49,816 nt of DNA from Christensenellales bacterium. GTDB taxonomy: Bacteria; Bacillota; Clostridia; Christensenellales; UBA1750. Below the pieces are notes generated by a model that made no database searches, had not been told where the DNA came from, and saw only the letters and a program-made list of their open reading frames with translations. Shown here one piece after another: positions 13,077 to 36,740 of the stretch (position 1 is the first letter of the stretch; the number at the start of each line of letters is the position of its first letter). The position numbers were made by a program, and so were the translations under genes. The stretch spans positions 1 to 49,816 of the forward strand of contig JBNRMU010000051.1 of assembly GCA_050309765.1 (NCBI GenBank). Direction: 5' to 3'.

Positions 13077-13104
13077 ACAGAACAACTTGCCATGAATGGA
13101 ACGA

Positions 13105-14046: not shown

Positions 14047-14064
14047 TGAAGAGGGCCTCCTTTC

Positions 14065-15027: not shown

Positions 15028-15104
15028 GCGGATTTTACCCCCTTTTCATTATTTGTCCAAGGGATGAGCGTCCAATGTAAATAGGATGCTCTCTGAATGT
15101 TTGT

Positions 15105-15142
15105 AGAAGGAAAGGGGTACGTCGTGAGGACGAACCCCTTTC
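15105..15142 (-). promoter_or_regulatory. Stable intercistronic hairpin between the binding-protein and permease genes (partial terminator or mRNA stabiliser)
   Basis: GAAAGGGGTTCGTC-ctcac-GACGTACCCCTTTC (13 of 14 bp) followed by CTTCT. Read in the mirror copy at 34675-34712. Confidence 0.5.
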
Positions 15143-15182
15143 TCCGTTCAATTTTGCTTAATCAGGTATCGGAACTGACAGC

Positions 15183-16943: not shown

Positions 16944-17021
16944 GGTTTACCTCCTCCTCATATTTACGTTTGCCTTTACAGTTGTCCAAGGGCAAATGCT
17001 TGGGGCAAACGATCGGGGTAA

Positions 17022-17051
17022 ATATATTCAGAAGCAGCAAGATGCTTCCAA
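17022..17051 (-). promoter_or_regulatory. Weak candidate promoter for the ABC importer operon (TTGGAA-N18-TGaATATAT)
   Basis: Read in the mirror copy at 32766-32795, about 80 nt upstream of the SBP start. Confidence 0.3.
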
Positions 17052-17672
17052 ATAACGGGAAAAGAATAGAAAACCGGCGGTCTCGACCGATTCTGAAGGG
17101 AAAGGACCTGGAACAAAAAACAACAGAATGTTGTTGGTCAAAAAACAACGATGTGAAACATGTGTATGCGCACGGCAGGCCTGCCTGGCCGGATGCATCT
17201 CAAGGGAACACATTTGCGGATCTGCTGCTTCGTGCCTGCAATCCATTAGCAAAGATGCACAAAACTCTAAGCATTATTGTATACACTTTTTCTTATTTTG
17301 ATAAGTAACTGTAAGCGATAAAACACTCACTGACAGCGAAATATAAATAGAAATGAAAAAAGACTGCACCACCTAACAAGAAGGAAAAAACATTGCACAA
17401 AAGGCTTTTTTTCCATAGTAGCAAGTATTTGCTATGGGAAGCACACAATAATAACGACCGGAAGGCATTGTATGGAAGTTGGATACACAAACAGGGTCAA
17501 GCCGCGGGCGCACCAAAGATGCGTGTGCCCCGGTGTGCCGTACCGCCTACGCAGAGACTGCTTCGACGGATGTCCTTCCGGTATCGCACAGGACGTACTG
17601 CACATCGGAAACAAGTTGTAGAAATTTATAATTTTATTGAAATGGAAGGCGGTCGCGAATATGCTTGATGCA

Positions 17673-17712
17673 TAAAAAACGGCCTGCGGCAGGAGAACCT
17701 GCAACAAGCCGT
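17673..17712 (-). terminator. Rho-independent terminator after rpmF
   Basis: ACGGCTTGTTGCAGG-ttctc-CCTGCCGCAGGCCGT followed by TTTTTT on the coding strand. Confidence 0.75.
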
Positions 17713-17786
17713 TTTTGTACCGTGTTGTCCGCCGGAAAGCAAACGAAGGATTTGCTCAGGCAGAAAGGGTTTTGCCCGAAAAAGGA

Positions 17787-17978
17787 TCAGGCGTTCTTTT
17801 CATCCGCGATCTGGATGACCTGCTTGCCGTCGTAGTAGCCGCACTTTTTGCAAACGCGGTGGGACAGCTTCATCGCGTGGCACTGGGGGCACTCGGCGAT
17901 GCCGGGCAGGGACAGGCGCCAATTGGCGCGGCGGGTATGCTTACGCTGCTTGGAGATTTTTCCCTTAGGGGTTGCCAT
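17787..17978 (-). CDS. rpmF: 50S ribosomal protein L32
   Basis: MATPKGKISKQRKHTRRANWRL...CPQCHAMKLSHRVCKKCGYY zinc ribbon. AAAGGAGGTG RBS. The ORF-track start at 18074 is an upstream extension. Confidence 0.93.
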   Translation of the reverse strand: MATPKGKISKQRKHTRRANWRLSLPGIAECPQCHAMKLSHRVCKKCGYYDGKQVIQIADEKNA

Positions 17979-18131
17979 CTGAAACACACCTCCTTTTCTT
18001 GGTGTAAATCCGTTTGTCCGCATCAAGCTGTTGGTGCGCCAAAGAGGCTTTACACCGTGCGTTTCGCTGAGCACTCGATGCTTGCGGGATTGATGATACG
18101 GGTTAATATATGGAACATTCCCCGGCCGCGT

Positions 18132-18647
18132 CTATTCGGCCGTTTCGTCCTCCTCCAGCTTCAGGGCGCCGAGCGCCGCAAAAGCGGGGTTGACAGGGGT
18201 GAGATCGCAGTTGCAGGGCCCCTCGTTCAGGTCCTTGCCGCACTTGGGGCAAAGACCCTTGCAGGTATCCTTGCAGAGGATCTGCGTGGGCATGTTCATG
18301 ACCAGGTTGCCCAGGACCATCTGGTCCAGATCGACGGCGGAGGATTCGTACAGGAAAGCGTCCGGCTCATCCTCATCCGCTTCGCGCAGATACTTTTCGG
18401 TGAAGGGGATCGAAAGCGTGAAGAACGCATCGCCCAGGCAGCGCACACAAGTGGAGCGCATGGATGCGACGATGGTGCCTTCCAGCGTGATCCTGTCCTC
18501 GATGCCCATCATTTGACCGGAAACGTGCACATCCCTGGTAAAGGAGATGTCGTCGCCGCGAAACTCGATGGGATCCATGGGCATATCCACGGCAAAGGGA
18601 AGACTCTCGCCCTGCTGCTGCAGGGCCCTCTGTACGGATAAGAGCAT
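18132..18647 (-). CDS. yceD: YceD/YlbN family (DUF177) large-subunit ribosome-associated protein
   Basis: 171 aa with the C-terminal Cys cluster CKDTCKGLCPKCGKDLNEGPCNC and the conserved position immediately upstream of rpmF. Confidence 0.85.
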   Translation of the reverse strand: MLLSVQRALQQQGESLPFAVDMPMDPIEFRGDDISFTRDVHVSGQMMGIEDRITLEGTIVASMRSTCVRCLGDAFFTLSIPFTEKYLREADEDEPDAFLYESSAVDLDQMVLGNLVMNMPTQILCKDTCKGLCPKCGKDLNEGPCNCDLTPVNPAFAALGALKLEEDETAE

Positions 18648-18677
18648 ACCTGTACCCTCACTTCGTCACGTCTCACT

Positions 18678-18706
18678 ATTATAGGCATGCAGGGCCCAAA
18701 AGTCAA
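18678..18706 (-). promoter_or_regulatory. Consensus sigma-A promoter for yceD-rpmF (TTGACT-N17-TATAAT)
   Basis: Both hexamers read exactly, at 31111-31116 and 31134-31139 in the mirror copy. Left-arm + strand shows ATTATA at 18678-83 and AGTCAA at 18701-06. Confidence 0.65.
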
Positions 18707-18744
18707 ACAGATTTTTTGTTACAGCAGCCTGCACAACGCGTTTT

Positions 18745-19938
18745 TCAGCGGCAAAGCTCCTGCGTATCGCGCGCGATGGCCAGCTCCTCGTTGGTGGAGA
18801 CGACCAGCACCTTGACCTTGCTGTCGGGGGTGGAGATGACGCCGTTGCCGCGGGTGGCGGCGTTGGCCTTTTCGTCCAGCTCCACGCCGAGGAAACCGAG
18901 TTTGGACAGCACGTCCGCGCGGACCTGCGTGTCGTTCTCGCCGATGCCGCCGGTGAAGGCGATGGCGTCCACGCCGCCCATGGCCGCCGCATAGGCGCCG
19001 ATGTACTTGCGCAGGCGGTAGCACAGCATTTCGATGGCGAGCTTGGCGCGCTCATTGCCCTCTTCCGCGGCCTTGGTGGTATCGCGCATATCGGAGGAAA
19101 CACCGGAAATGCCGAGCAGACCGGACTTCTTATTGAGGATGTTCAGCATCTCGTCGATGTTCAAACCCTCGATGTTCATCACATACTGCAGCACGGCGGG
19201 GTCCACATCGCCGGAGCGGGTGCCCATGACCATGCCTTCCAGCGGAGTGATGCCCATGGAGGTATCCGCGCACTTGCCATCCACCACGGCGGACAGGGAG
19301 GAGCCGTTGCCGAGGTGGCAGACGATCAGGCGCAGGCCCTTGCCGCCCTCATAGCCCAGGCGCTTGGCCGCCTCGGCGGAAACAAAGCGGTGGGAGGTGC
19401 CGTGGAAGCCGTAGCGGCGCACCTTGTACTTCTCGTAATATTCGTAGGGCACGGCGTACATATACGCGTAGTCGGGCATGGTCTGATGGAAAGCGGTATC
19501 GAACACCGCCACGTTGGGCTTGCCGGGCATCAGTTTTTCGCAGACCTCGATGCCGGCCAGGTTGGCGGGGTTGTGCAGGGGGCCGAGCACGAAGTTGTCA
19601 CGGATGGCCTTTTTGACGGGGCCGTCCACCACGGTGGACTTGGTGAAGTCAGCGCCGCCGTGCAGCACCCTGTGGCCGATGGCGTCGATGGAGGACAGAT
19701 CGGGGATGACGCCCTTTTCGGGGTCGGTCAAAAGCTTTACCACGAACTCCATGGCGGCGGTGTGGTCGGGAACGGGCGCCTCGATGGCGATGGGGCCCTT
19801 ATCGGACTTCTGCGAAACAGCGCCCATCGGCAGGCCGATGCGCTCCACCTGGCCCTTGGCCAGAACGGACTCGTCGTCCATATTGAAAAGCTGGTATTTC
19901 AGCGAAGAGCTGCCCGCGTTGATAACCAGGATATTCAT
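18745..19938 (-). CDS. ackA: Acetate kinase
   Basis: MNILVINAGSSSLKYQLF N-terminus, 397 aa, AGGAGGAAG RBS, directly downstream of pta. Confidence 0.95.
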   Translation of the reverse strand: MNILVINAGSSSLKYQLFNMDDESVLAKGQVERIGLPMGAVSQKSDKGPIAIEAPVPDHTAAMEFVVKLLTDPEKGVIPDLSSIDAIGHRVLHGGADFTKSTVVDGPVKKAIRDNFVLGPLHNPANLAGIEVCEKLMPGKPNVAVFDTAFHQTMPDYAYMYAVPYEYYEKYKVRRYGFHGTSHRFVSAEAAKRLGYEGGKGLRLIVCHLGNGSSLSAVVDGKCADTSMGITPLEGMVMGTRSGDVDPAVLQYVMNIEGLNIDEMLNILNKKSGLLGISGVSSDMRDTTKAAEEGNERAKLAIEMLCYRLRKYIGAYAAAMGGVDAIAFTGGIGENDTQVRADVLSKLGFLGVELDEKANAATRGNGVISTPDSKVKVLVVSTNEELAIARDTQELCR

Positions 19939-19961
19939 ACCTGTTGCTTCCTCCTATATTT

Positions 19962-20951
19962 TTATTCGTTCTGCGCCTGCACGGCGGTCAGCGCGCACAG
20001 GGAAACGATGTCGTCGCTGGAGCAGCCGCGGCTCAGGTCGTTCACGGGACGGGCCAGGCCCTGCATCACGGGGCCGATGGCGGTGGCGCCGGCCAGACGC
20101 TGCACGAGCTTATAGCCGATGTTGCCGGCTTCCAGGCTGGGGAAGATGAGCACGTTGGCCTTGCCCGCGACCTTGGAGCCGGGGGACTTGAGCTGGCCGA
20201 CCTTTTCGACCAGGGCGGCGTCGGCCTGCAGCTCGCCGTCGACATTCAGCTCGGGAGCCAGCTGCTTGACCAGCTCCGTGGCCTCGCGGACCTTGTCCAC
20301 CATATCGCCCTTGCCGGAACCCTTGGTGGAGAAGGAGAGCATGGCGACCTTGGGCTCGGCGATCTCGGCGATGGACTTGGCGGTCTCGGCGGAAGCGATG
20401 GCGATGGCGGCCAGCTGCTGCGCGTCGGGCTCGATGTTCACGGCACAGTCGGCAAAGATCATGACGCCGTCCTGGCCGTAGCTCTTATCGGGGCACTCCA
20501 TCACAAAGCAGGAAGAAGCGGTGGTCACGCCCTTTTTGGTCTTGATGATCTGAAGCGCGGGCCTGAGGGTATCGGCGGTGGAATGGATGGCGCCGGAAAC
20601 CATGCCGTCGGCCTCGTTCATCTTCATCATCATGGTGCCGAAGAAGGTCTCCTCCTGCATCTGCTGCAGGGCCTTTTCCGGGGTCATACCCTTGGCCTTG
20701 CGCAGCTCGTACAGCATGTCGGCATAAGCCTGGAGCTTGTCGCTTTTCTTGGGATCGATGATGGTGGCGCCGGTGAGGTCCTCGCCGTAGGAGCGGATCT
20801 TTTCCTCGTCGCCCAGCAGGATCAGGTCGCAGATACCTTCCTTCAAAAGAACGGCCGCGGCCTTAACGGTGCGCTCCTCCGCACCCTCGGGCAGCACGAT
20901 GCGCTTTTTGTCAACCTTTGCCTTTGCCTTGATGCGATCCATCAAACTCAT
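19962..20951 (-). CDS. pta: Phosphate acetyltransferase (short form, 329 aa)
   Basis: RIVLPEGAEERTVKAA..., GAIHSTADTLRPALQIIKT motifs. AAGGAGGAAA RBS. Confidence 0.93.
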   Translation of the reverse strand: MSLMDRIKAKAKVDKKRIVLPEGAEERTVKAAAVLLKEGICDLILLGDEEKIRSYGEDLTGATIIDPKKSDKLQAYADMLYELRKAKGMTPEKALQQMQEETFFGTMMMKMNEADGMVSGAIHSTADTLRPALQIIKTKKGVTTASSCFVMECPDKSYGQDGVMIFADCAVNIEPDAQQLAAIAIASAETAKSIAEIAEPKVAMLSFSTKGSGKGDMVDKVREATELVKQLAPELNVDGELQADAALVEKVGQLKSPGSKVAGKANVLIFPSLEAGNIGYKLVQRLAGATAIGPVMQGLARPVNDLSRGCSSDDIVSLCALTAVQAQNE

Positions 20952-21110
20952 TTACGTTTCCTCCTTAAGTTATGTGGTATACTGTACCTGGGCCTGCGCG
21001 GCCGCGGGCGTGTTTCAAGCGCTGCGCCGCAAAATGCGCGGACACTGCGCCGCATTGTCCCAAACAGATACAGTATACAGAAAAATCAACCGTTTGAAAA
21101 GGAGAATTTG

Positions 21111-22253
21111 ATGAAGGTTTGCGCAATCCTGTGTGAATACAACCCCCTGCATCGGGGCCATGCCTACCAGATCGCGCAGGCCAGGGTCAAAAGCTGTGCG
21201 GACTATGTCGTGTGCCTGATGAGCGGGCCGTTCGTGCAGCGGGGCGAACCGGCCGTTGCGGACAAGTGGACGCGTACGCAGGCGGCCCTTATGGCCGGCG
21301 TCGACCTTGTGATAGAGCTTCCGTCCCTGTTTGCCCTGCGCGCGGCGCAGGATTTCGCCTTCGGCGGAATGAGCCTGATGCACAGCCTGTCCGTGGTGAC
21401 GCATGTGAGCTTTGGCGCGGAAACGGGCGAGCTGGAAAAGCTGCTGCCCCTGCTGCAGCCGGAAACGGAGCAGCAATCCGCCAGGCTGTACAGGGCGCTG
21501 AAAGACGGCAACAGCTATCCGCGTGCTGTCGCCATCTCCCGCGCGCAGGCTTTGGAGCGCAACGACCTGCTGGCCGTGGAATATCTGCGCGCGCTGAAAA
21601 AGCTCGAAAGTCCGATCGAGCCCGTGTGCATCCCGCGCTTGAGCGAAGGGAAGGGCGGCTGCTCGTCCTCGCAGATACGCAGCCTGCTGCAGACGGATGT
21701 AGAAGCAGCCCTTGCTCTCTGCCCGGAGGAATCCGCGGCGCTCACCCGCGAGGCGCTTTTGCGCCAGGACGGAGCGGCGCAGATGGAGAACATCGAGGCG
21801 CTTTTGCTCAACAATCTGCGCCGTCTGGACGCCGCGGCCCTTTCCGCTTGCCCGGGCATGGACGAGGGCCTGGAAAACCGCGTGCTTGCCGCCGCGCAGC
21901 AGGCGAGCGATTTAAACGAGCTGCTTTCCCTCATCAAAACCAAGCGCTACACCATGGCGCGCATCAAGCGCGGCCTTTTGCACGCGCTGCTTGGCAACAC
22001 AAAACAGCTTTTGCGGGAACATCCCGCGCCGGAGTTTGCCCGCGTGCTGGGCTTTCGCGAAAGCGCGCTGCCGCTTTTGCAGGAACTGGGGCGCAGTTCC
22101 CGCGTGCCGCTCATCCTGCGGCCGGCAAAGTGGAAGAAGGACCCCCTGTACCGGCGCGAGCTGGCGGCCCAGGACCTGTGGGGCCTTTGCCAAGGCGACC
22201 CGGCCTTCCGGCGGGCGGGCAGCGATCTTACGCAGCCGCTGGTGAAGCTTTAG
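21111..22253 (+). CDS. tmcAL: tRNA(Met) cytidine acetate ligase (YlbM/TmcAL nucleotidyltransferase family), 380 aa
   Basis: Real start MKVCAILCEYNPLHRGHAYQI with AAAGGAG RBS. The first 389 codons of ORF 19944..22253 are antisense to pta and are discarded. Confidence 0.8.
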   Translation: MKVCAILCEYNPLHRGHAYQIAQARVKSCADYVVCLMSGPFVQRGEPAVADKWTRTQAALMAGVDLVIELPSLFALRAAQDFAFGGMSLMHSLSVVTHVSFGAETGELEKLLPLLQPETEQQSARLYRALKDGNSYPRAVAISRAQALERNDLLAVEYLRALKKLESPIEPVCIPRLSEGKGGCSSSQIRSLLQTDVEAALALCPEESAALTREALLRQDGAAQMENIEALLLNNLRRLDAAALSACPGMDEGLENRVLAAAQQASDLNELLSLIKTKRYTMARIKRGLLHALLGNTKQLLREHPAPEFARVLGFRESALPLLQELGRSSRVPLILRPAKWKKDPLYRRELAAQDLWGLCQGDPAFRRAGSDLTQPLVKL

Positions 22254-22310
22254 AACAAGGGTGCGCGGAAACATCCCGATGCAATAAAAACTTCAAGGAG
22301 GAAACAAAGG

Positions 22311-22679
22311 ATGAGCGGGATCAAGCGATACGAGATCCACGAGGAATGGGCCCATTCCGGTATCGTGAAGGCGGGCGACTACTGCTTTTTGAGCTACTGC
22401 GTGGGCAATATCGGCGGCAGCGTCGAGGAGCAGATCAACGGCGCCTTCGACAACATGGAGGAGAGGCTGGCGCTGGTCGGGCTCACGCTGGAAAACGTCG
22501 TGCAGATGGACTGCCTGTTCCGGGACGTGTGGAACATCCCTGTGATGGAAAAGGTCATCAAAGAGCGCTTCCACGGCAAATACCCCGCCCGCAAATCCAT
22601 CCAGACCAACTTCGCGCACGTGGGCGGTGGGGACGGCCTGCAGTTCCAGGCGGATGCCGTGGCGTACTGCGGATCATGA
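22311..22679 (+). CDS. RidA/YjgF-family protein (122 aa)
   Basis: AAGGAGGAAA RBS. Family-like pattern: EEQINGAFDNMEERLALVGLTLENVVQMDCLFRD...YPARKSIQ. Confidence 0.65.
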   Translation: MSGIKRYEIHEEWAHSGIVKAGDYCFLSYCVGNIGGSVEEQINGAFDNMEERLALVGLTLENVVQMDCLFRDVWNIPVMEKVIKERFHGKYPARKSIQTNFAHVGGGDGLQFQADAVAYCGS

Positions 22680-22759
22680 CCGGAAGGCACCATCTACCGG
22701 TATCTTTTGCGGCAGATGCGCCTGAGCCCAAAGAAAACGAATCGGGATTTGAGGAGAGA

Positions 22760-23401
22760 ATGGATTTAAGCGAAGCGGAGTTGTACAAAGAGCTGGGAGC
22801 TTTGACAAAGGAAAGAGATAGGTGGGAGGAAAACATCCCATACGTTTCCTCTCTTCTTGCCCATGAATCGGTCAAAATACGGGCCAAGGCGCTTTGGCTG
22901 TTGGGGGAGATGGGCCTTTTGTACCCTTTGGCGGCGCAAAGCGCGGTGGCCCAAATCGCCGCTTTTCTGGACAGCCCTGCGCCGCTTTTGCGGGAGCGGG
23001 CGCTGAACGCCCTGGGCAGGATCGGGCGGGGCAGCTTCCCTGTGATCGAACCGTATTGGCCGAGCCTGTTTCGCTTTGCCTGCGATGAGGAGGCAAAGGT
23101 CCGGCTGAGTTTTATTTGGGCGGCGGAAAACATCGCCATAAACACGCCCGATGTGCATGAAAAGCATATGTGCATATTTGCACAGCTTCTGCACGATGCA
23201 AACGACAGGGTGCGGATGGAGGCACCGGAAATCTTTCGCGTGCTCGGCAAACGCAGGCCGGAGTTTGTTTTGCCTTTTGTGGATAAGTTGCAAAGGATAT
23301 CGGAAACCGACGAGAATCGTGTCGTAAGGATCCACTGCCTGGGCGCGATCCGGGCCGCGGTATCGGAACGGGCGAATCCCGCCTGTCTCAGCGATAATTG
23401 A
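22760..23401 (+). CDS. HEAT/ARM-like repeat protein (213 aa)
   Basis: C-terminal segment of ORF 21212..23401, starting at MDLSEAELYKE after GAGGAG. Repeated helical units present (ESVKIRAKALWLLGEMG, LLRERALNALGRIG, DRVRMEAPEIFRVLG, NRVVRIHCLGAI). Confidence 0.6.
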   Translation: MDLSEAELYKELGALTKERDRWEENIPYVSSLLAHESVKIRAKALWLLGEMGLLYPLAAQSAVAQIAAFLDSPAPLLRERALNALGRIGRGSFPVIEPYWPSLFRFACDEEAKVRLSFIWAAENIAINTPDVHEKHMCIFAQLLHDANDRVRMEAPEIFRVLGKRRPEFVLPFVDKLQRISETDENRVVRIHCLGAIRAAVSERANPACLSDN

Positions 23402-23414
23402 AATAGGGAAATAC

Positions 23415-23453
23415 AAAAAAATACCGCCGGCAAGTCTTGCCGGCGGTATTTTG
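23415..23453. terminator. Bidirectional terminator between convergent genes
   Basis: AAAAATACCGCCGGCAAG-tc-TTGCCGGCGGTATTTT, with an A-tract on one side and a T-tract on the other. Confidence 0.8.
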
Positions 23454-23460
23454 CGTGCAA

Positions 23461-23991
23461 TCAGATCTTTTGCCTTGCGGCCTTCCTCTGCGCGACCTCC
23501 AGCATGAGCACACAGGCCCGCTGCTGCTTTAAAAAGTCGGCGAAGGGACGCACGTCGCGCATATCGCCCTGGCGCTCGTTGTAAAACTGGTAGGCGCCGT
23601 CCGCAAGCCGGCGGTAGGCCACGTAATGCAGCCCGCGCCGGTTGAGCACCAGCGCAGCGCCCAGGGGATAGGTCTTAAGCTTTTTGCTCCAGGGCCAGAC
23701 GAAATGCCAGCGGGCGAACAGGCCGTCCCTTTTCAGGCATTTGGACACGGCAAAGGGCCAAACGCCCAGGCGGCCGCCGAAAAGCGTTCCCGGCTCCATG
23801 CGGTGCAGGACCTCCTCCGGCTGGGCGTTTTTGCCCAGCAGGCGGAACAGGTTGTAGGTGGCGATCCAGCCGCAGCCGTTGAAATCGCTGAACAGGCCCG
23901 CCCGACCGAAGCGGAACAGGCCTTTTAGGGCCAGTTGGTTGACGAGGCAGGAAAATTCGGGCTCAAAGGTGCCCTTGGGCGCGCCGGTCAT
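23461..23991 (-). CDS. Hypothetical cytoplasmic protein with possible papain-fold Cys/His pair (176 aa)
   Basis: The ATG overlaps the patatin stop as ATGA. Candidate catalytic-type motifs NGCGWIATYN and GLHYVAYRR. No signal peptide. Family not recognised. Confidence 0.5.
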   Translation of the reverse strand: MTGAPKGTFEPEFSCLVNQLALKGLFRFGRAGLFSDFNGCGWIATYNLFRLLGKNAQPEEVLHRMEPGTLFGGRLGVWPFAVSKCLKRDGLFARWHFVWPWSKKLKTYPLGAALVLNRRGLHYVAYRRLADGAYQFYNERQGDMRDVRPFADFLKQQRACVLMLEVAQRKAARQKI

Positions 23992-24776
23992 GGCTGGATG
24001 CGGCGCTCAAGGGCCGCCAAAAGTGCCGGCATCTGGCGCTCGGCCTCCTCGCGGCCGATGCGGATGGTCTCCTCCGCCTGGGCGATAGAGGCCATGTTGA
24101 TGTGGGCAAGGGAGGGCACGATGTTGATATCCGAGCGGTTGACCCGCTCGCGGATGGAACACCATTCCATCACGGCAAAGGCCTGCATCATGATGGCGGT
24201 GATGTTGTCGCACTTGCTGAAGCCGCCGTGGTAGCCGACATCTACGGAGATGATGAAGTCGGCACCCATTTCACGCACGGTATCCGTCGGCACGCGCGCC
24301 ACCACGCCGCCGTCCACCAGCAGGCGGCCGTCGCGCGTGACGGGCTTGAACACGCCGGGAATGGAGATGGAGGCGCGGATGGCCTCATAGACCTTGCCTT
24401 CGGAAAGCTCCACCAGCTCGCCGCGCTCCAGGTCCGTTGCCACGGCGGTGAAGGGGATCTTGAGGTCGGAAAAATCGCGGTTGCCGGTCAGGGTGCGCAA
24501 AAGCAACTCGATGCGCTGGCCGGTGATGAACCCCATGCGGGGAACGGCCATATCGATCAGGGACTTTTCGTCCAGGGTGTAGCAGAACTTTTCCAGCAGG
24601 CGCAGGTCCATGCCCGAGCAGTAGATGCCGCCGACCACTGCGCCCATGGAGGTGCCGGCCACCATATGCACGGGAATGCCGTTTTCCTCCAGCACCTGCA
24701 AAACGCCTATGTGGGCCAGGCCGCGGAAAGCGCCGCCGCCCAGGGCAAGGCCTATTTTGAGGTTCGTATCGATCAT
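23988..24776 (-). CDS. Patatin-like phospholipase (YlbK/RssA-like), 262 aa
   Basis: MIDTNLKIGLALGGGAFRG (GGGxxG), GTSMG (GxSxG) and VDGG (DGG) motifs. AAGGGAG RBS. An alternative ATG lies 21 nt upstream. Confidence 0.85.
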   Translation of the reverse strand: MIDTNLKIGLALGGGAFRGLAHIGVLQVLEENGIPVHMVAGTSMGAVVGGIYCSGMDLRLLEKFCYTLDEKSLIDMAVPRMGFITGQRIELLLRTLTGNRDFSDLKIPFTAVATDLERGELVELSEGKVYEAIRASISIPGVFKPVTRDGRLLVDGGVVARVPTDTVREMGADFIISVDVGYHGGFSKCDNITAIMMQAFAVMEWCSIRERVNRSDINIVPSLAHINMASIAQAEETIRIGREEAERQMPALLAALERRIQP

Positions 24777-24834
24777 AAACAGGGGGACTCCCTTCATAAC
24801 TTTGTAGAAGCAGCGCGGATAGGGGGAGATCGGG

Positions 24835-24908
24835 ATGCAGCGGTTATTCAGGGCGATGCTGCCGTTTGCGATAAGCGGGTTCCTGCTCCTTATGCTGTTG
24901 CGGCCGGC
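24835..24908 (+). pseudogene. 5' fragment of a divergently transcribed gene, cut by the palindrome axis (MQRLFRAMLPFAISGFLLLMLLRP...)
   Basis: AGGGGGAG RBS at 24821-24828, ATG at 24835, then 24 codons of a signal-peptide/TM-like sequence. Reading then passes into its own reverse complement and stops at TAA 24925-24927. Confidence 0.6.
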
Positions 24909-24916
24909 GCCGGCCG
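24901..24916. other. Symmetry axis of the palindrome (between 24908 and 24909): CGGCCGGC|GCCGGCCG, with no loop or spacer
   Basis: Read directly: ...ctgttgCGGCCGGC|GCCGGCCGcaacag.... The arms abut with zero unique bases between them. Confidence 0.95.
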
Positions 24917-24982
24917 CAACAGCATAAGGAGCAGGAACCCGCTTATCGCAAACGGCAGCATCGCCCTGAATAACCGCTGCAT
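24909..24982 (-). pseudogene. Mirror copy of the truncated gene fragment
   Basis: Exact reverse complement of 24835..24908. Confidence 0.6.
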
Positions 24983-25040
24983 CCCGATCTCCCCCTATCC
25001 GCGCTGCTTCTACAAAGTTATGAAGGGAGTCCCCCTGTTT

Positions 25041-25829
25041 ATGATCGATACGAACCTCAAAATAGGCCTTGCCCTGGGCGGCGGCGCTTTCCGCGGCCTG
25101 GCCCACATAGGCGTTTTGCAGGTGCTGGAGGAAAACGGCATTCCCGTGCATATGGTGGCCGGCACCTCCATGGGCGCAGTGGTCGGCGGCATCTACTGCT
25201 CGGGCATGGACCTGCGCCTGCTGGAAAAGTTCTGCTACACCCTGGACGAAAAGTCCCTGATCGATATGGCCGTTCCCCGCATGGGGTTCATCACCGGCCA
25301 GCGCATCGAGTTGCTTTTGCGCACCCTGACCGGCAACCGCGATTTTTCCGACCTCAAGATCCCCTTCACCGCCGTGGCAACGGACCTGGAGCGCGGCGAG
25401 CTGGTGGAGCTTTCCGAAGGCAAGGTCTATGAGGCCATCCGCGCCTCCATCTCCATTCCCGGCGTGTTCAAGCCCGTCACGCGCGACGGCCGCCTGCTGG
25501 TGGACGGCGGCGTGGTGGCGCGCGTGCCGACGGATACCGTGCGTGAAATGGGTGCCGACTTCATCATCTCCGTAGATGTCGGCTACCACGGCGGCTTCAG
25601 CAAGTGCGACAACATCACCGCCATCATGATGCAGGCCTTTGCCGTGATGGAATGGTGTTCCATCCGCGAGCGGGTCAACCGCTCGGATATCAACATCGTG
25701 CCCTCCCTTGCCCACATCAACATGGCCTCTATCGCCCAGGCGGAGGAGACCATCCGCATCGGCCGCGAGGAGGCCGAGCGCCAGATGCCGGCACTTTTGG
25801 CGGCCCTTGAGCGCCGCATCCAGCCATGA
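25041..25829 (+). CDS. Patatin-like phospholipase (mirror copy)
   Basis: Exact mirror of 23988..24776. ATG 25041 lies after AAGGGAG at 25023-25029. Confidence 0.85.
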   Translation: MIDTNLKIGLALGGGAFRGLAHIGVLQVLEENGIPVHMVAGTSMGAVVGGIYCSGMDLRLLEKFCYTLDEKSLIDMAVPRMGFITGQRIELLLRTLTGNRDFSDLKIPFTAVATDLERGELVELSEGKVYEAIRASISIPGVFKPVTRDGRLLVDGGVVARVPTDTVREMGADFIISVDVGYHGGFSKCDNITAIMMQAFAVMEWCSIRERVNRSDINIVPSLAHINMASIAQAEETIRIGREEAERQMPALLAALERRIQP

Positions 25830-26356
25830 CCGGCGCGCCCAAGGGCACCTTTGAGCCCGAATTTTCCTGCCTCGTCAACCAACTGGCCCTAAAAGGCCTG
25901 TTCCGCTTCGGTCGGGCGGGCCTGTTCAGCGATTTCAACGGCTGCGGCTGGATCGCCACCTACAACCTGTTCCGCCTGCTGGGCAAAAACGCCCAGCCGG
26001 AGGAGGTCCTGCACCGCATGGAGCCGGGAACGCTTTTCGGCGGCCGCCTGGGCGTTTGGCCCTTTGCCGTGTCCAAATGCCTGAAAAGGGACGGCCTGTT
26101 CGCCCGCTGGCATTTCGTCTGGCCCTGGAGCAAAAAGCTTAAGACCTATCCCCTGGGCGCTGCGCTGGTGCTCAACCGGCGCGGGCTGCATTACGTGGCC
26201 TACCGCCGGCTTGCGGACGGCGCCTACCAGTTTTACAACGAGCGCCAGGGCGATATGCGCGACGTGCGTCCCTTCGCCGACTTTTTAAAGCAGCAGCGGG
26301 CCTGTGTGCTCATGCTGGAGGTCGCGCAGAGGAAGGCCGCAAGGCAAAAGATCTGA
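25826..26356 (+). CDS. Hypothetical Cys/His protein (mirror copy)
   Basis: Exact mirror of 23461..23991. ATGA overlap read at 25826-25829. Confidence 0.5.
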   Translation: MTGAPKGTFEPEFSCLVNQLALKGLFRFGRAGLFSDFNGCGWIATYNLFRLLGKNAQPEEVLHRMEPGTLFGGRLGVWPFAVSKCLKRDGLFARWHFVWPWSKKLKTYPLGAALVLNRRGLHYVAYRRLADGAYQFYNERQGDMRDVRPFADFLKQQRACVLMLEVAQRKAARQKI

Positions 26357-26363
26357 TTGCACG

Positions 26364-26402
26364 CAAAATACCGCCGGCAAGACTTGCCGGCGGTATTTTT
26401 TT
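26364..26402. terminator. Bidirectional terminator (mirror copy)
   Basis: Exact mirror of 23415..23453. Confidence 0.8.
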
Positions 26403-26415
26403 GTATTTCCCTATT

Positions 26416-27057
26416 TCAATTATCGCTGAGACAGGCGGGATTCGCCCGTTCCGATACCGCGGCCCGGATCGCGCCCAGGCAGTGGATCCTTACGACACGA
26501 TTCTCGTCGGTTTCCGATATCCTTTGCAACTTATCCACAAAAGGCAAAACAAACTCCGGCCTGCGTTTGCCGAGCACGCGAAAGATTTCCGGTGCCTCCA
26601 TCCGCACCCTGTCGTTTGCATCGTGCAGAAGCTGTGCAAATATGCACATATGCTTTTCATGCACATCGGGCGTGTTTATGGCGATGTTTTCCGCCGCCCA
26701 AATAAAACTCAGCCGGACCTTTGCCTCCTCATCGCAGGCAAAGCGAAACAGGCTCGGCCAATACGGTTCGATCACAGGGAAGCTGCCCCGCCCGATCCTG
26801 CCCAGGGCGTTCAGCGCCCGCTCCCGCAAAAGCGGCGCAGGGCTGTCCAGAAAAGCGGCGATTTGGGCCACCGCGCTTTGCGCCGCCAAAGGGTACAAAA
26901 GGCCCATCTCCCCCAACAGCCAAAGCGCCTTGGCCCGTATTTTGACCGATTCATGGGCAAGAAGAGAGGAAACGTATGGGATGTTTTCCTCCCACCTATC
27001 TCTTTCCTTTGTCAAAGCTCCCAGCTCTTTGTACAACTCCGCTTCGCTTAAATCCAT
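26416..27057 (-). CDS. HEAT/ARM-like repeat protein (mirror copy)
   Basis: Exact mirror of 22760..23401. Confidence 0.6.
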   Translation of the reverse strand: MDLSEAELYKELGALTKERDRWEENIPYVSSLLAHESVKIRAKALWLLGEMGLLYPLAAQSAVAQIAAFLDSPAPLLRERALNALGRIGRGSFPVIEPYWPSLFRFACDEEAKVRLSFIWAAENIAINTPDVHEKHMCIFAQLLHDANDRVRMEAPEIFRVLGKRRPEFVLPFVDKLQRISETDENRVVRIHCLGAIRAAVSERANPACLSDN

Positions 27058-27137
27058 TCTCTCCTCAAATCCCGATTCGTTTTCTTTGGGCTCAGGCGCA
27101 TCTGCCGCAAAAGATACCGGTAGATGGTGCCTTCCGG

Positions 27138-27506
27138 TCATGATCCGCAGTACGCCACGGCATCCGCCTGGAACTGCAGGCCGTCCCCACCGCCCACGTG
27201 CGCGAAGTTGGTCTGGATGGATTTGCGGGCGGGGTATTTGCCGTGGAAGCGCTCTTTGATGACCTTTTCCATCACAGGGATGTTCCACACGTCCCGGAAC
27301 AGGCAGTCCATCTGCACGACGTTTTCCAGCGTGAGCCCGACCAGCGCCAGCCTCTCCTCCATGTTGTCGAAGGCGCCGTTGATCTGCTCCTCGACGCTGC
27401 CGCCGATATTGCCCACGCAGTAGCTCAAAAAGCAGTAGTCGCCCGCCTTCACGATACCGGAATGGGCCCATTCCTCGTGGATCTCGTATCGCTTGATCCC
27501 GCTCAT
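27138..27506 (-). CDS. RidA/YjgF-family protein (mirror copy)
   Basis: Exact mirror of 22311..22679. Confidence 0.65.
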   Translation of the reverse strand: MSGIKRYEIHEEWAHSGIVKAGDYCFLSYCVGNIGGSVEEQINGAFDNMEERLALVGLTLENVVQMDCLFRDVWNIPVMEKVIKERFHGKYPARKSIQTNFAHVGGGDGLQFQADAVAYCGS

Positions 27507-27563
27507 CCTTTGTTTCCTCCTTGAAGTTTTTATTGCATCGGGATGTTTCCGCGCACCCTTGTT

Positions 27564-28706
27564 CTAAAGCTTCACCAGCGGCTGCGTAAGATCGCTGCCC
27601 GCCCGCCGGAAGGCCGGGTCGCCTTGGCAAAGGCCCCACAGGTCCTGGGCCGCCAGCTCGCGCCGGTACAGGGGGTCCTTCTTCCACTTTGCCGGCCGCA
27701 GGATGAGCGGCACGCGGGAACTGCGCCCCAGTTCCTGCAAAAGCGGCAGCGCGCTTTCGCGAAAGCCCAGCACGCGGGCAAACTCCGGCGCGGGATGTTC
27801 CCGCAAAAGCTGTTTTGTGTTGCCAAGCAGCGCGTGCAAAAGGCCGCGCTTGATGCGCGCCATGGTGTAGCGCTTGGTTTTGATGAGGGAAAGCAGCTCG
27901 TTTAAATCGCTCGCCTGCTGCGCGGCGGCAAGCACGCGGTTTTCCAGGCCCTCGTCCATGCCCGGGCAAGCGGAAAGGGCCGCGGCGTCCAGACGGCGCA
28001 GATTGTTGAGCAAAAGCGCCTCGATGTTCTCCATCTGCGCCGCTCCGTCCTGGCGCAAAAGCGCCTCGCGGGTGAGCGCCGCGGATTCCTCCGGGCAGAG
28101 AGCAAGGGCTGCTTCTACATCCGTCTGCAGCAGGCTGCGTATCTGCGAGGACGAGCAGCCGCCCTTCCCTTCGCTCAAGCGCGGGATGCACACGGGCTCG
28201 ATCGGACTTTCGAGCTTTTTCAGCGCGCGCAGATATTCCACGGCCAGCAGGTCGTTGCGCTCCAAAGCCTGCGCGCGGGAGATGGCGACAGCACGCGGAT
28301 AGCTGTTGCCGTCTTTCAGCGCCCTGTACAGCCTGGCGGATTGCTGCTCCGTTTCCGGCTGCAGCAGGGGCAGCAGCTTTTCCAGCTCGCCCGTTTCCGC
28401 GCCAAAGCTCACATGCGTCACCACGGACAGGCTGTGCATCAGGCTCATTCCGCCGAAGGCGAAATCCTGCGCCGCGCGCAGGGCAAACAGGGACGGAAGC
28501 TCTATCACAAGGTCGACGCCGGCCATAAGGGCCGCCTGCGTACGCGTCCACTTGTCCGCAACGGCCGGTTCGCCCCGCTGCACGAACGGCCCGCTCATCA
28601 GGCACACGACATAGTCCGCACAGCTTTTGACCCTGGCCTGCGCGATCTGGTAGGCATGGCCCCGATGCAGGGGGTTGTATTCACACAGGATTGCGCAAAC
28701 CTTCAT
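27564..28706 (-). CDS. tmcAL: tRNA(Met) cytidine acetate ligase (mirror copy)
   Basis: Exact mirror of 21111..22253. Confidence 0.8.
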   Translation of the reverse strand: MKVCAILCEYNPLHRGHAYQIAQARVKSCADYVVCLMSGPFVQRGEPAVADKWTRTQAALMAGVDLVIELPSLFALRAAQDFAFGGMSLMHSLSVVTHVSFGAETGELEKLLPLLQPETEQQSARLYRALKDGNSYPRAVAISRAQALERNDLLAVEYLRALKKLESPIEPVCIPRLSEGKGGCSSSQIRSLLQTDVEAALALCPEESAALTREALLRQDGAAQMENIEALLLNNLRRLDAAALSACPGMDEGLENRVLAAAQQASDLNELLSLIKTKRYTMARIKRGLLHALLGNTKQLLREHPAPEFARVLGFRESALPLLQELGRSSRVPLILRPAKWKKDPLYRRELAAQDLWGLCQGDPAFRRAGSDLTQPLVKL

Positions 28707-28865
28707 CAAATTCTCCTTTTCAAACGGTTGATTTTTCTGTATACTGTATCTGTTTGGGACAATGCGGCGCAGTGTCCGCGCATTTTGCGGCGCAGCGCTT
28801 GAAACACGCCCGCGGCCGCGCAGGCCCAGGTACAGTATACCACATAACTTAAGGAGGAAACGTAA

Positions 28866-29855
28866 ATGAGTTTGATGGATCGCATCAAGGCAAAGGCAAA
28901 GGTTGACAAAAAGCGCATCGTGCTGCCCGAGGGTGCGGAGGAGCGCACCGTTAAGGCCGCGGCCGTTCTTTTGAAGGAAGGTATCTGCGACCTGATCCTG
29001 CTGGGCGACGAGGAAAAGATCCGCTCCTACGGCGAGGACCTCACCGGCGCCACCATCATCGATCCCAAGAAAAGCGACAAGCTCCAGGCTTATGCCGACA
29101 TGCTGTACGAGCTGCGCAAGGCCAAGGGTATGACCCCGGAAAAGGCCCTGCAGCAGATGCAGGAGGAGACCTTCTTCGGCACCATGATGATGAAGATGAA
29201 CGAGGCCGACGGCATGGTTTCCGGCGCCATCCATTCCACCGCCGATACCCTCAGGCCCGCGCTTCAGATCATCAAGACCAAAAAGGGCGTGACCACCGCT
29301 TCTTCCTGCTTTGTGATGGAGTGCCCCGATAAGAGCTACGGCCAGGACGGCGTCATGATCTTTGCCGACTGTGCCGTGAACATCGAGCCCGACGCGCAGC
29401 AGCTGGCCGCCATCGCCATCGCTTCCGCCGAGACCGCCAAGTCCATCGCCGAGATCGCCGAGCCCAAGGTCGCCATGCTCTCCTTCTCCACCAAGGGTTC
29501 CGGCAAGGGCGATATGGTGGACAAGGTCCGCGAGGCCACGGAGCTGGTCAAGCAGCTGGCTCCCGAGCTGAATGTCGACGGCGAGCTGCAGGCCGACGCC
29601 GCCCTGGTCGAAAAGGTCGGCCAGCTCAAGTCCCCCGGCTCCAAGGTCGCGGGCAAGGCCAACGTGCTCATCTTCCCCAGCCTGGAAGCCGGCAACATCG
29701 GCTATAAGCTCGTGCAGCGTCTGGCCGGCGCCACCGCCATCGGCCCCGTGATGCAGGGCCTGGCCCGTCCCGTGAACGACCTGAGCCGCGGCTGCTCCAG
29801 CGACGACATCGTTTCCCTGTGCGCGCTGACCGCCGTGCAGGCGCAGAACGAATAA
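28866..29855 (+). CDS. pta: Phosphate acetyltransferase (mirror copy)
   Basis: Exact mirror of 19962..20951. Confidence 0.93.
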   Translation: MSLMDRIKAKAKVDKKRIVLPEGAEERTVKAAAVLLKEGICDLILLGDEEKIRSYGEDLTGATIIDPKKSDKLQAYADMLYELRKAKGMTPEKALQQMQEETFFGTMMMKMNEADGMVSGAIHSTADTLRPALQIIKTKKGVTTASSCFVMECPDKSYGQDGVMIFADCAVNIEPDAQQLAAIAIASAETAKSIAEIAEPKVAMLSFSTKGSGKGDMVDKVREATELVKQLAPELNVDGELQADAALVEKVGQLKSPGSKVAGKANVLIFPSLEAGNIGYKLVQRLAGATAIGPVMQGLARPVNDLSRGCSSDDIVSLCALTAVQAQNE

Positions 29856-29878
29856 AAATATAGGAGGAAGCAACAGGT

Positions 29879-31072
29879 ATGAATATCCTGGTTATCAACG
29901 CGGGCAGCTCTTCGCTGAAATACCAGCTTTTCAATATGGACGACGAGTCCGTTCTGGCCAAGGGCCAGGTGGAGCGCATCGGCCTGCCGATGGGCGCTGT
30001 TTCGCAGAAGTCCGATAAGGGCCCCATCGCCATCGAGGCGCCCGTTCCCGACCACACCGCCGCCATGGAGTTCGTGGTAAAGCTTTTGACCGACCCCGAA
30101 AAGGGCGTCATCCCCGATCTGTCCTCCATCGACGCCATCGGCCACAGGGTGCTGCACGGCGGCGCTGACTTCACCAAGTCCACCGTGGTGGACGGCCCCG
30201 TCAAAAAGGCCATCCGTGACAACTTCGTGCTCGGCCCCCTGCACAACCCCGCCAACCTGGCCGGCATCGAGGTCTGCGAAAAACTGATGCCCGGCAAGCC
30301 CAACGTGGCGGTGTTCGATACCGCTTTCCATCAGACCATGCCCGACTACGCGTATATGTACGCCGTGCCCTACGAATATTACGAGAAGTACAAGGTGCGC
30401 CGCTACGGCTTCCACGGCACCTCCCACCGCTTTGTTTCCGCCGAGGCGGCCAAGCGCCTGGGCTATGAGGGCGGCAAGGGCCTGCGCCTGATCGTCTGCC
30501 ACCTCGGCAACGGCTCCTCCCTGTCCGCCGTGGTGGATGGCAAGTGCGCGGATACCTCCATGGGCATCACTCCGCTGGAAGGCATGGTCATGGGCACCCG
30601 CTCCGGCGATGTGGACCCCGCCGTGCTGCAGTATGTGATGAACATCGAGGGTTTGAACATCGACGAGATGCTGAACATCCTCAATAAGAAGTCCGGTCTG
30701 CTCGGCATTTCCGGTGTTTCCTCCGATATGCGCGATACCACCAAGGCCGCGGAAGAGGGCAATGAGCGCGCCAAGCTCGCCATCGAAATGCTGTGCTACC
30801 GCCTGCGCAAGTACATCGGCGCCTATGCGGCGGCCATGGGCGGCGTGGACGCCATCGCCTTCACCGGCGGCATCGGCGAGAACGACACGCAGGTCCGCGC
30901 GGACGTGCTGTCCAAACTCGGTTTCCTCGGCGTGGAGCTGGACGAAAAGGCCAACGCCGCCACCCGCGGCAACGGCGTCATCTCCACCCCCGACAGCAAG
31001 GTCAAGGTGCTGGTCGTCTCCACCAACGAGGAGCTGGCCATCGCGCGCGATACGCAGGAGCTTTGCCGCTGA
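29879..31072 (+). CDS. ackA: Acetate kinase (mirror copy)
   Basis: Exact mirror of 18745..19938. Confidence 0.95.
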   Translation: MNILVINAGSSSLKYQLFNMDDESVLAKGQVERIGLPMGAVSQKSDKGPIAIEAPVPDHTAAMEFVVKLLTDPEKGVIPDLSSIDAIGHRVLHGGADFTKSTVVDGPVKKAIRDNFVLGPLHNPANLAGIEVCEKLMPGKPNVAVFDTAFHQTMPDYAYMYAVPYEYYEKYKVRRYGFHGTSHRFVSAEAAKRLGYEGGKGLRLIVCHLGNGSSLSAVVDGKCADTSMGITPLEGMVMGTRSGDVDPAVLQYVMNIEGLNIDEMLNILNKKSGLLGISGVSSDMRDTTKAAEEGNERAKLAIEMLCYRLRKYIGAYAAAMGGVDAIAFTGGIGENDTQVRADVLSKLGFLGVELDEKANAATRGNGVISTPDSKVKVLVVSTNEELAIARDTQELCR

Positions 31073-31110
31073 AAAACGCGTTGTGCAGGCTGCTGTAACA
31101 AAAAATCTGT

Positions 31111-31139
31111 TTGACTTTTGGGCCCTGCATGCCTATAAT
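31111..31139 (+). promoter_or_regulatory. Consensus promoter TTGACT-N17-TATAAT for yceD-rpmF (mirror copy)
   Basis: Read directly: TTGACT 31111-31116, TATAAT 31134-31139. Confidence 0.65.
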
Positions 31140-31169
31140 AGTGAGACGTGACGAAGTGAGGGTACAGGT

Positions 31170-31685
31170 ATGCTCTTATCCGTACAGAGGGCCCTGCAGC
31201 AGCAGGGCGAGAGTCTTCCCTTTGCCGTGGATATGCCCATGGATCCCATCGAGTTTCGCGGCGACGACATCTCCTTTACCAGGGATGTGCACGTTTCCGG
31301 TCAAATGATGGGCATCGAGGACAGGATCACGCTGGAAGGCACCATCGTCGCATCCATGCGCTCCACTTGTGTGCGCTGCCTGGGCGATGCGTTCTTCACG
31401 CTTTCGATCCCCTTCACCGAAAAGTATCTGCGCGAAGCGGATGAGGATGAGCCGGACGCTTTCCTGTACGAATCCTCCGCCGTCGATCTGGACCAGATGG
31501 TCCTGGGCAACCTGGTCATGAACATGCCCACGCAGATCCTCTGCAAGGATACCTGCAAGGGTCTTTGCCCCAAGTGCGGCAAGGACCTGAACGAGGGGCC
31601 CTGCAACTGCGATCTCACCCCTGTCAACCCCGCTTTTGCGGCGCTCGGCGCCCTGAAGCTGGAGGAGGACGAAACGGCCGAATAG
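31170..31685 (+). CDS. yceD: YceD/DUF177 protein (mirror copy)
   Basis: Exact mirror of 18132..18647. Confidence 0.85.
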   Translation: MLLSVQRALQQQGESLPFAVDMPMDPIEFRGDDISFTRDVHVSGQMMGIEDRITLEGTIVASMRSTCVRCLGDAFFTLSIPFTEKYLREADEDEPDAFLYESSAVDLDQMVLGNLVMNMPTQILCKDTCKGLCPKCGKDLNEGPCNCDLTPVNPAFAALGALKLEEDETAE

Positions 31686-31838
31686 ACGCGGCCGGGGAAT
31701 GTTCCATATATTAACCCGTATCATCAATCCCGCAAGCATCGAGTGCTCAGCGAAACGCACGGTGTAAAGCCTCTTTGGCGCACCAACAGCTTGATGCGGA
31801 CAAACGGATTTACACCAAGAAAAGGAGGTGTGTTTCAG

Positions 31839-32030
31839 ATGGCAACCCCTAAGGGAAAAATCTCCAAGCAGCGTAAGCATACCCGCCGCGCCAATTGGCG
31901 CCTGTCCCTGCCCGGCATCGCCGAGTGCCCCCAGTGCCACGCGATGAAGCTGTCCCACCGCGTTTGCAAAAAGTGCGGCTACTACGACGGCAAGCAGGTC
32001 ATCCAGATCGCGGATGAAAAGAACGCCTGA
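31839..32030 (+). CDS. rpmF: 50S ribosomal protein L32 (mirror copy)
   Basis: Exact mirror of 17787..17978. ATG 31839 lies after AAAGGAGGTG at 31821-31830. Confidence 0.93.
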   Translation: MATPKGKISKQRKHTRRANWRLSLPGIAECPQCHAMKLSHRVCKKCGYYDGKQVIQIADEKNA

Positions 32031-32104
32031 TCCTTTTTCGGGCAAAACCCTTTCTGCCTGAGCAAATCCTTCGTTTGCTTTCCGGCGGACAACACGGTAC
32101 AAAA

Positions 32105-32144
32105 ACGGCTTGTTGCAGGTTCTCCTGCCGCAGGCCGTTTTTTA
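32105..32144 (+). terminator. rpmF terminator (mirror copy)
   Basis: Exact mirror of 17673..17712. Confidence 0.75.
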
Positions 32145-32765
32145 TGCATCAAGCATATTCGCGACCGCCTTCCATTTCAATAAAATTATAAATTTCTACA
32201 ACTTGTTTCCGATGTGCAGTACGTCCTGTGCGATACCGGAAGGACATCCGTCGAAGCAGTCTCTGCGTAGGCGGTACGGCACACCGGGGCACACGCATCT
32301 TTGGTGCGCCCGCGGCTTGACCCTGTTTGTGTATCCAACTTCCATACAATGCCTTCCGGTCGTTATTATTGTGTGCTTCCCATAGCAAATACTTGCTACT
32401 ATGGAAAAAAAGCCTTTTGTGCAATGTTTTTTCCTTCTTGTTAGGTGGTGCAGTCTTTTTTCATTTCTATTTATATTTCGCTGTCAGTGAGTGTTTTATC
32501 GCTTACAGTTACTTATCAAAATAAGAAAAAGTGTATACAATAATGCTTAGAGTTTTGTGCATCTTTGCTAATGGATTGCAGGCACGAAGCAGCAGATCCG
32601 CAAATGTGTTCCCTTGAGATGCATCCGGCCAGGCAGGCCTGCCGTGCGCATACACATGTTTCACATCGTTGTTTTTTGACCAACAACATTCTGTTGTTTT
32701 TTGTTCCAGGTCCTTTCCCTTCAGAATCGGTCGAGACCGCCGGTTTTCTATTCTTTTCCCGTTAT

Positions 32766-32795
32766 TTGGAAGCATCTTGCTGCTTCTGAATATAT
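32766..32795 (+). promoter_or_regulatory. Weak candidate promoter for the ABC importer (mirror copy)
   Basis: TTGGAA 32766-32771, TGAATATAT 32787-32795. Confidence 0.3.
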
Positions 32796-32873
32796 TTACC
32801 CCGATCGTTTGCCCCAAGCATTTGCCCTTGGACAACTGTAAAGGCAAACGTAAATATGAGGAGGAGGTAAACC

Positions 32874-34634: not shown

Positions 34635-34674
34635 GCTGTCAGTTCCGATACCTGATTAAGCAAAATTGAACGGA

Positions 34675-34712
34675 GAAAGGGGTTCGTCCTCACGACGTAC
34701 CCCTTTCCTTCT
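34675..34712 (+). promoter_or_regulatory. Intercistronic hairpin (mirror copy)
   Basis: Exact mirror of 15105..15142. Confidence 0.5.
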
Positions 34713-34789
34713 ACAAACATTCAGAGAGCATCCTATTTACATTGGACGCTCATCCCTTGGACAAATAATGAAAAGGGGGTAAAATCCGC

Positions 34790-35752: not shown

Positions 35753-35770
35753 GAAAGGAGGCCCTCTTCA

Positions 35771-36712: not shown

Positions 36713-36740
36713 TCGTTCCATTCATGGCAAGTTGTTCTGT

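Follow-up and report, generated by a model that had tools for sequence, protein, structure and literature searches.

Based on the perfect palindromy of an entire contig, the read-through of the native chromosome in four assemblies, the breakpoint that these share, the presence and stability of a native palindrome at the axis and the position of both outer ends inside tuf, all of which were observed directly, we propose that the 49,816-base window is an artefact seeded at a native palindrome and does not mark a biological centre such as a telomere or a replication origin; we place the probability of this reading at about 0.87. The window, by which we mean the whole stretch of DNA that was analysed, is a complete deposited contig, as an NCBI-sourced contig of exactly 49,816 bp is listed in a protein cluster for the patatin encoded here. 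Aligned with its reverse complement it shows 0 mismatches across two arms of 24,908 bases each, and the axis of this symmetry, which lies between positions 24908 and 24909 (with GCGGCCGGC on its left and GCCGGCCGC on its right), is the exact midpoint of the window. Both attributes of a fold-back contig, namely self-reverse-complementarity (49,816 of 49,816 bases identical) and an axis at the midpoint, are present. The left arm (1..24908) is the exact reverse complement of the right, while the right arm (24909..49816) and the native chromosome of the species are collinear. Arguments from GC skew were dropped, as the reversal of skew at the axis is imposed by the palindrome itself.

The native form of the locus was reached through a search with the patatin-like protein encoded next to the axis, which found P0001 and P0119 and in which a 99%-identical cluster led to contigs from four independent samples. 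These are two Logan assemblies, SRR31093300 (L005, 97.1% nucleotide identity) and SRR29910021 (L007, 99.44% nucleotide identity), the ENA assembly ERZ926431 (L008, 97.3% nucleotide identity), and JGI 3300001682, whose 28,310-bp contig SAHD_10002615 (L006/L009) is fully syntenic and 99.67% identical over 10,928 bp. All four of these same-species assemblies (L005-L008) are collinear with one arm, and in each of the four the homology to the window ends at the same base, 24902, 7 nt past the axis. Beyond this breakpoint they read straight through into different sequence, comprising an intact divergent gene of 362-366 aa, a gene for a 149-aa protein, coaD and rsmD. The divergent gene is called at 362-366 aa in three of the assemblies and at 312 aa, from an internal start, in L008 (73..1011), over identical DNA. 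Scans of genome and metagenome contigs with the patatin protein returned only relatives of at most 76% identity, which are informative for synteny and too distant for mapping of the breakpoint; one of these (L002, 76% amino acid identity on the patatin) displays the same divergent arrangement, with a gene of 374 aa.

The intact divergent protein starts with MQRLFRAMLPFAISGFLLLMLLRPAPA, continues with ...RPAPAMQGAREGLLVF... (MQGAREGLLVF...) and extends to 362-366 aa. Its residues 11-314 match TIGR02871 (spore_ylbJ) with an E-value of 1.1e-43 and 149.7 bits; as this score does not reach the curated cutoff of 304.65, we refer to the gene as YlbJ-like. The order rsmD-coaD-ylbJ at the native locus is the arrangement known from Bacillus. 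At the C-terminus of the YlbJ-like protein we observed a length polymorphism of 4 residues (12 bp) between strains, with ...LLLMRQLMRLISLRR contrasting with ...LLLMRLISLRR in a comparison of L006 (2431..3531) and L007 (2072..3172) with L005 (2456..3544) and L008 (73..1011); judged from the sequences, it looks like a small tandem duplication.

What remains of this gene in the window is a small open reading frame on each side of the axis. In the left arm an RBS-like motif, AGGGGGAG, at 24821-24828 precedes an ATG at 24835 on the forward strand, from which the frame reads MQRLFRAMLPFAISGFLLLMLLRP and then APAATA before the stop codon at 24925-24927. The native part of this truncated ylbJ-like gene (24835..24927) covers 24835..24915, whereas the last codons, for the residues ATA and the stop (24916..24927), are the gene's own antisense. 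The mirror copy, which belongs to the right arm, occupies 24890..24982 on the reverse strand with its ATG at 24982, a position equivalent to 3544 of L005. The patatin-like phospholipase itself is present as a 262-aa right-arm copy (25041..25829, forward strand; PF01734, E 8e-33; 99% identical to P0001) and as the mirror copy produced by the palindrome (23988..24776, reverse strand). Two further frames of 575 aa run across the axis (24102..25829 on the forward strand and its mirror, 23988..25715, on the reverse strand). In the forward-strand frame, antisense sequence from the left-arm patatin gene and from the start of ylbJ is continuous in frame with the right-arm patatin, and the reverse-strand frame is the mirror image of this. 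Neither is a gene; they appear in the window because no stop codon interrupts the patatin frame where it runs antisense through the 5' end of ylbJ. In the native L008 contig the patatin call (309 aa in place of 262; 1079..2008) likewise starts 2 nt before the palindrome, in the ylbJ antisense frame.

Most of this local anatomy had been anticipated in the original prediction. The reversal that it placed 132 bp upstream of each patatin copy agrees with the axis and with the patatin ATG at 25041, the divergent frame with its RBS, its ATG at 24835 and its stop at 24927 has precisely those coordinates, and the two 575-aa frames (23988..25715 on the reverse and 24102..25829 on the forward strand) do exist, cross the axis and are chimeras with antisense patatin sequence. 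Its description of a reversal around 24777..25040 is correct in every coordinate; the symmetry, however, is not local and spans the whole contig. The 24 codons that the truncated gene was said to retain have to be revised to 27 (MQRLF...LLRPAPA), with identity to the native gene through 24915, because the native gene itself contains a 14-bp palindrome that straddles the axis. The N-terminus that it read as a typical signal-peptide or transmembrane start belongs to a multi-pass membrane protein, whose first transmembrane helix it forms, and is not a secretion signal.

This 14-bp palindrome is central to our interpretation. It is perfect, consists entirely of G and C, and is centred on the axis at 24902..24915 (GGCCGGCGCCGGCC, with GGCCGGC to the left and GCCGGCC to the right). 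In all four conspecific assemblies it is native, in the context ...CCCTGCAT followed by the 14-mer and GCAACAGCATAAGG..., and it lies 68-81 nt into the ylbJ-like gene, where it encodes RPAPA. The window and each of the conspecific loci (L005-L008) contain a single copy of the 14-mer, and none of 100 shuffles has one; it is not found in the relatives of 76% identity, and no relative shows symmetry longer than 14 bp. Of the 28,364 centres in a 28.4-kb native composite, only 6 have a perfect palindrome with a half-length of at least 7 (P = 2.1e-4 per centre), and the axis palindrome is the most stable of the 33 perfect palindromes of at least 10 bp, with a self-duplex dG of -25.2 kcal/mol (the next has -21.7) and a Tm of about 66 C. 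A strand ending in the 14-mer can also snap back on itself, forming a 5-bp stem with a 4-nt loop. The junction is situated at a short native self-complementary microhomology, and this placement of the axis at the native 14-mer is beyond chance. As the fold-back took place at the single best self-annealing site of the region, the event bears the mark of annealing and not of a random break. The longest other perfect palindrome in the arm is the 16-bp GGAATGGGCCCATTCC at 27459..27474 (mirror 22343..22358), which falls within the RidA-family gene; its stability is below that of the palindrome at the axis, and no fold-back is seen there.

These comparisons also bear out the wider argument of the original prediction. 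It had held that part of the central motif, for instance CCGGCGCC, was native, and the native microhomology turns out to be longer, namely GGCCGGCGCCGGCC at 24902..24915. It had further suggested that a short native inverted repeat provided the microhomology for fold-back or template switching, a view supported by the location of the native 14-bp palindrome exactly on the axis. It had proposed alignment to an intact homologue of the gene beginning MQRLFRAMLPF..., and had reckoned that its case would fail if the relatives had no such gene or shared the palindromic centre; the gene is intact in L005-L008, with homology to one arm ending at 24902 in all four, and the extended palindrome is found in no related genome. 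Its reading of the axis as a junction and not an evolved centre is in agreement with the native read-through in the four assemblies and with the outer ends inside tuf.

We then examined the gene content of the arm, compiled from Pfam scans of its large open reading frames and from the precomputed annotation of the syntenic JGI contig (L006/L009). Outward from the axis the right arm codes for the patatin-like phospholipase, a 176-aa protein, a HEAT-repeat protein, RidA, TmcAL (HIGH_NTase1), Pta and AckA, followed by YceD, RpmF (L32), a solute-binding protein (SBP), two ABC permeases, a DUF4340 protein, an aminotransferase and an SDR protein, and thereafter by a C11 peptidase of the clostripain family, a protein with the metallo-beta-lactamase fold, Pfk, a 101-aa protein, DnaE and the 3' end of tuf. 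These are chromosomal housekeeping genes only, and they include the single-copy essential genes dnaE, rpmF, pfk, ackA and pta. Neither Pfam scans of the main open reading frames nor the Pfam hits of the L006/L009 genes revealed any protelomerase, integrase, phage or plasmid gene in the arm, searches of phage and plasmid collections gave no match to it, and tRNA and Rfam scans of one arm yielded no hits. The nearest named relatives of the patatin protein in a protein search are from Christensenellaceae and Christensenellales metagenome-assembled genomes, at 47-64% identity. The arm is ordinary chromosome of an uncultured Clostridia (Christensenellales-like) lineage. Between the rpmF (L32) gene and the solute-binding-protein gene there is a stretch of 48% G+C (17001..18000, mirror 31817..32816) within an arm of approximately 59% G+C, and it includes an 88-aa open reading frame without a family hit.

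At their outer ends the two arms stop at one and the same genomic base. The last 135 bases of each arm represent the 3' end of tuf, encoding the C-terminal domain of EF-Tu and the stop codon (3..137 on the forward strand, PF03143, E 4e-16; mirror copy at 49680..49814 on the reverse strand). The same-species JGI contig ends 55 bp short of this point, so that the shared position of the two ends is one where assemblies break; assemblies of this organism thus seem to break repeatedly at tuf, as would be expected of a conserved or duplicated gene.

In light of these observations we posit that the artefact most probably arose in two steps, through chimeric molecules and the subsequent traversal of an assembly graph, with the remainder of the probability for an artefact divided between a purely computational join and ligation at a restriction site. 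A count of k-mers is instructive in this regard. For k up to 15 all k-mers that span the axis are native, whereas from k = 17 upward k-15 non-native k-mers are needed: the junction sequence of the window is TGTTGCGGCCGGCGCCGGCCGCAACA (TGTTGCGGCCGGC and GCCGGCCGCAACA on the two sides of the axis), whereas the native one is CCCTGCATGGCCGGCGCCGGCCGCAACA. As k-mers absent from the native genome are required at k of 17 or more, the junction probably derives from real fold-back molecules. In the first step, a strand ending at or just past the palindrome would have become single-stranded, for instance during strand-displacement amplification, end repair or fragmentation, and its self-complementary 3' end could have annealed to the identical 14-mer on a complementary or displaced strand, forming 14 G:C pairs; alternatively, the 3' end may have snapped back on itself through the 5-bp stem and 4-nt loop. 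Extension by a polymerase would then have recopied the patatin side as its reverse complement, giving rise to fold-back molecules devoid of the rest of ylbJ. In the second step, as the geometry of the contig suggests, the k-mers of the junction would have linked the unitig of the arm to its own reverse complement, creating an “inverted loop”. The assembler would have spelled through this loop and walked back along the same path, with both ends stopping at the same base in tuf. Such a traversal would write the arm twice, make the two arms identical to the base and place both contig ends at the same position in tuf.

A graph containing both the native and the fold-back path would branch at the palindrome, and the fold-back path would be output only if the native edge were missing or weaker. 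In this context we observed an NCBI-sourced contig of 15,343 bp with the native left flank of this species, coding for CoaD, RsmD and the 149-aa protein (P0133, P0137, P0138); relative to the JGI copy, CoaD and RsmD have 98-99% amino acid identity and the 149-aa protein is identical. No NCBI-sourced YlbJ protein is present in the protein cluster collection. The 15,343-bp contig may come from the same assembly as the window, and the body of ylbJ, approximately 1 kb, may be missing there; if so, the inverted loop was left without a competing edge. That a drop in coverage across the GC-rich, hairpin-prone stretch favoured the fold-back path is only a guess.

If no chimeric molecule is invoked, an assembler or contig merger might have used the 14-bp overlap alone to connect the arm with its reverse complement. 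A k-mer with a palindromic (k-1)-suffix does create an inverted loop (PMC9528984), and the nativeness of every axis-spanning k-mer up to k = 15 is in keeping with such a join. However, a native palindromic (k-1)-mer exists at the axis for k of up to 15 only, and k = 15 is too small for building a contig of 49.8 kb; at k of 17 or more the non-native k-mers would have to be supplied, and sequencing error could do so only through three specific substitutions in a single read. The usual starting k of metagenome assemblers is at least 21, and overlap mergers normally need more than 14-15 bp. We therefore regard this purely computational origin as unlikely. The axis is also the centre of GGCGCC, the site of NarI, KasI and SfoI, and of GCGC, the site of HhaI and HinP1I, and reasoning from the sequence, the self-ligation of two copies of a fragment cut there would regenerate the site and yield a perfect palindrome, as might occur by head-to-head ligation in a proximity-ligation library. 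Such a cut, however, would require no more than 4-6 bp of symmetry, and the native symmetry amounts to 14 bp; the chance of the 4-5 additional matched pairs is approximately 1e-3 to 4e-3, as calculated from the per-step match rate in the palindrome-centre count of the native composite. These five enzymes are not usual in the preparation of metagenome libraries, and we consider a ligation of this kind very improbable. HpaII (CCGG), an enzyme used for meta3C, was ruled out as a source of the junction, as the axis would be shifted by 3 bp and the junction sequence would differ.

The alternatives in which the palindrome is a product of living cells have to contend with the native loci. A real inverted duplication or palindromic amplicon might have formed in the strain or in a subpopulation by a template switch or by fold-back break repair at the 14-mer. 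Short, stable inverted repeats are the expected substrate of fold-back inversion and palindromic amplification, and the junction does lie at a short and very stable one; moreover, the seeming absence of the ylbJ body from the NCBI-sourced proteins, with the coaD and rsmD flank on a separate contig of 15.3 kb, would fit such a rearrangement. A recent duplication would also give identical arms, so that arm identity alone does not discriminate. Nevertheless, the four conspecific assemblies are native and do not show the structure, the product would lose the adjoining chromosome, and the termination of both arms at the same base of tuf is a mark of graph traversal and not of a duplication boundary. 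Bacteria are not known to maintain a perfect palindrome of tens of kb that lacks a spacer, because their SbcCD-type nucleases cleave long palindromes. Furthermore, polymerases acting in vitro make exactly this type of junction at high frequency (PMC1855051). An in vivo duplication is, in our estimate, decidedly unlikely, and we are equally doubtful that a giant palindromic molecule of at least 50 kb was made in cells and was abundant enough to outcompete the native junction in the assembly graph. Finally, a perfect palindrome with zero spacer is also the form expected of a head-to-head replicative dimer of a replicon with hairpin ends, and the axis could on this account be the hairpin telomere or resolution site of a linear replicon of the N15 or Borrelia type, or else an origin or terminus of replication. 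Against this stand the lack of any protelomerase, phage or plasmid gene in the arm and of any match in the phage and plasmid collections, the fact that the axis cuts through a conserved gene, found intact in the four conspecific assemblies and in one more distant relative, and the placement of the other “end” inside tuf, together with the absence of a palindrome longer than 14 bp from all relatives. On the grounds of native read-through, gene content and tuf-internal outer ends we exclude the telomere or origin reading, its residual probability being negligible.

The axis is accordingly of minor biological interest, being neither a telomere, nor an origin, nor any other evolved element, and its significance lies in its practical consequences. 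The deposited contig carries every gene twice, including the single-copy markers dnaE, rpmF, pfk, ackA and pta, and these duplicated markers would inflate the estimates of contamination or duplication for a bin that holds the contig. The two spurious 575-aa frames and the two truncated ylbJ fragments can likewise spread into protein databases. The identity of the contig with its own reverse complement provides a simple test by which such records can be flagged automatically, and the present example, in which the fold-back junction settled on the available self-complementary site of greatest stability (14 bp, all G:C), is a fully resolved case that should be useful for artefact filters.

Among known systems, the replicons with hairpin telomeres and palindromic resolution sites (N15 telRL, Borrelia) share with the window a perfect palindrome that has no spacer at a centre. 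In contrast, the window has no protelomerase and consists of chromosomal genes, its axis falls in a gene that is intact in relatives, and its other end lies in tuf. The formation of palindromes in vivo, in which a large perfect palindrome grows from a short inverted repeat with loss of the distal sequence, follows the same logic at the junction, but the conspecific genomes are native in this case and the contig geometry points to graph traversal. In the literature on palindromic contigs in metagenome assemblies we found no paper describing exactly this class; Chen et al. 2020 (PMC7111523) mention only artefacts of direct concatenation. Closer parallels come from the individual steps that we propose. 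Long-read data contain fold-back artefact reads that can tangle assembly graphs (the Breakinator paper, PMC12870357), and like the window these are near-perfect palindromes with a central breakpoint and often with no intervening sequence. Its authors assign no role to microhomology (zero occurrences of the term), whereas the axis here is a native palindrome; with zero differences between them, the arms are more in keeping with a k-mer graph or with high-accuracy reads than with noisy long ones.

Palindromic unitigs are known to result from inverted loops in de Bruijn graphs, and both SPAdes and MEGAHIT are reported to continue spelling across a palindrome (Rahman & Medvedev 2022, PMC9528984). 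The window resembles such unitigs in being exactly self-reverse-complementary and in having both ends at the same dead end of the graph. While that work treats true genomic palindromes, the (k-1)-palindrome of the window is non-native for k above 15, and it would therefore have been supplied by chimeric reads. For these, the inverted chimeras of multiple displacement amplification (MDA) offer a comparable model: inverted forms make up more than 85% of MDA chimeras, and their priming involves 2-21 nt of complementarity (Lasken & Stockwell 2007, PMC1855051). Like the junction of the window they represent an inverted repeat of nearby sequence, which arises once a displaced 3' end has primed on sequence complementary to it. 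The 14 nt of complementarity at the axis falls within this range, at the site that is the most stable self-complementary one in 28 kb. Most MDA chimeras have a deletion between the inverted segments, whereas the priming site here is itself palindromic and no spacer separates the arms.
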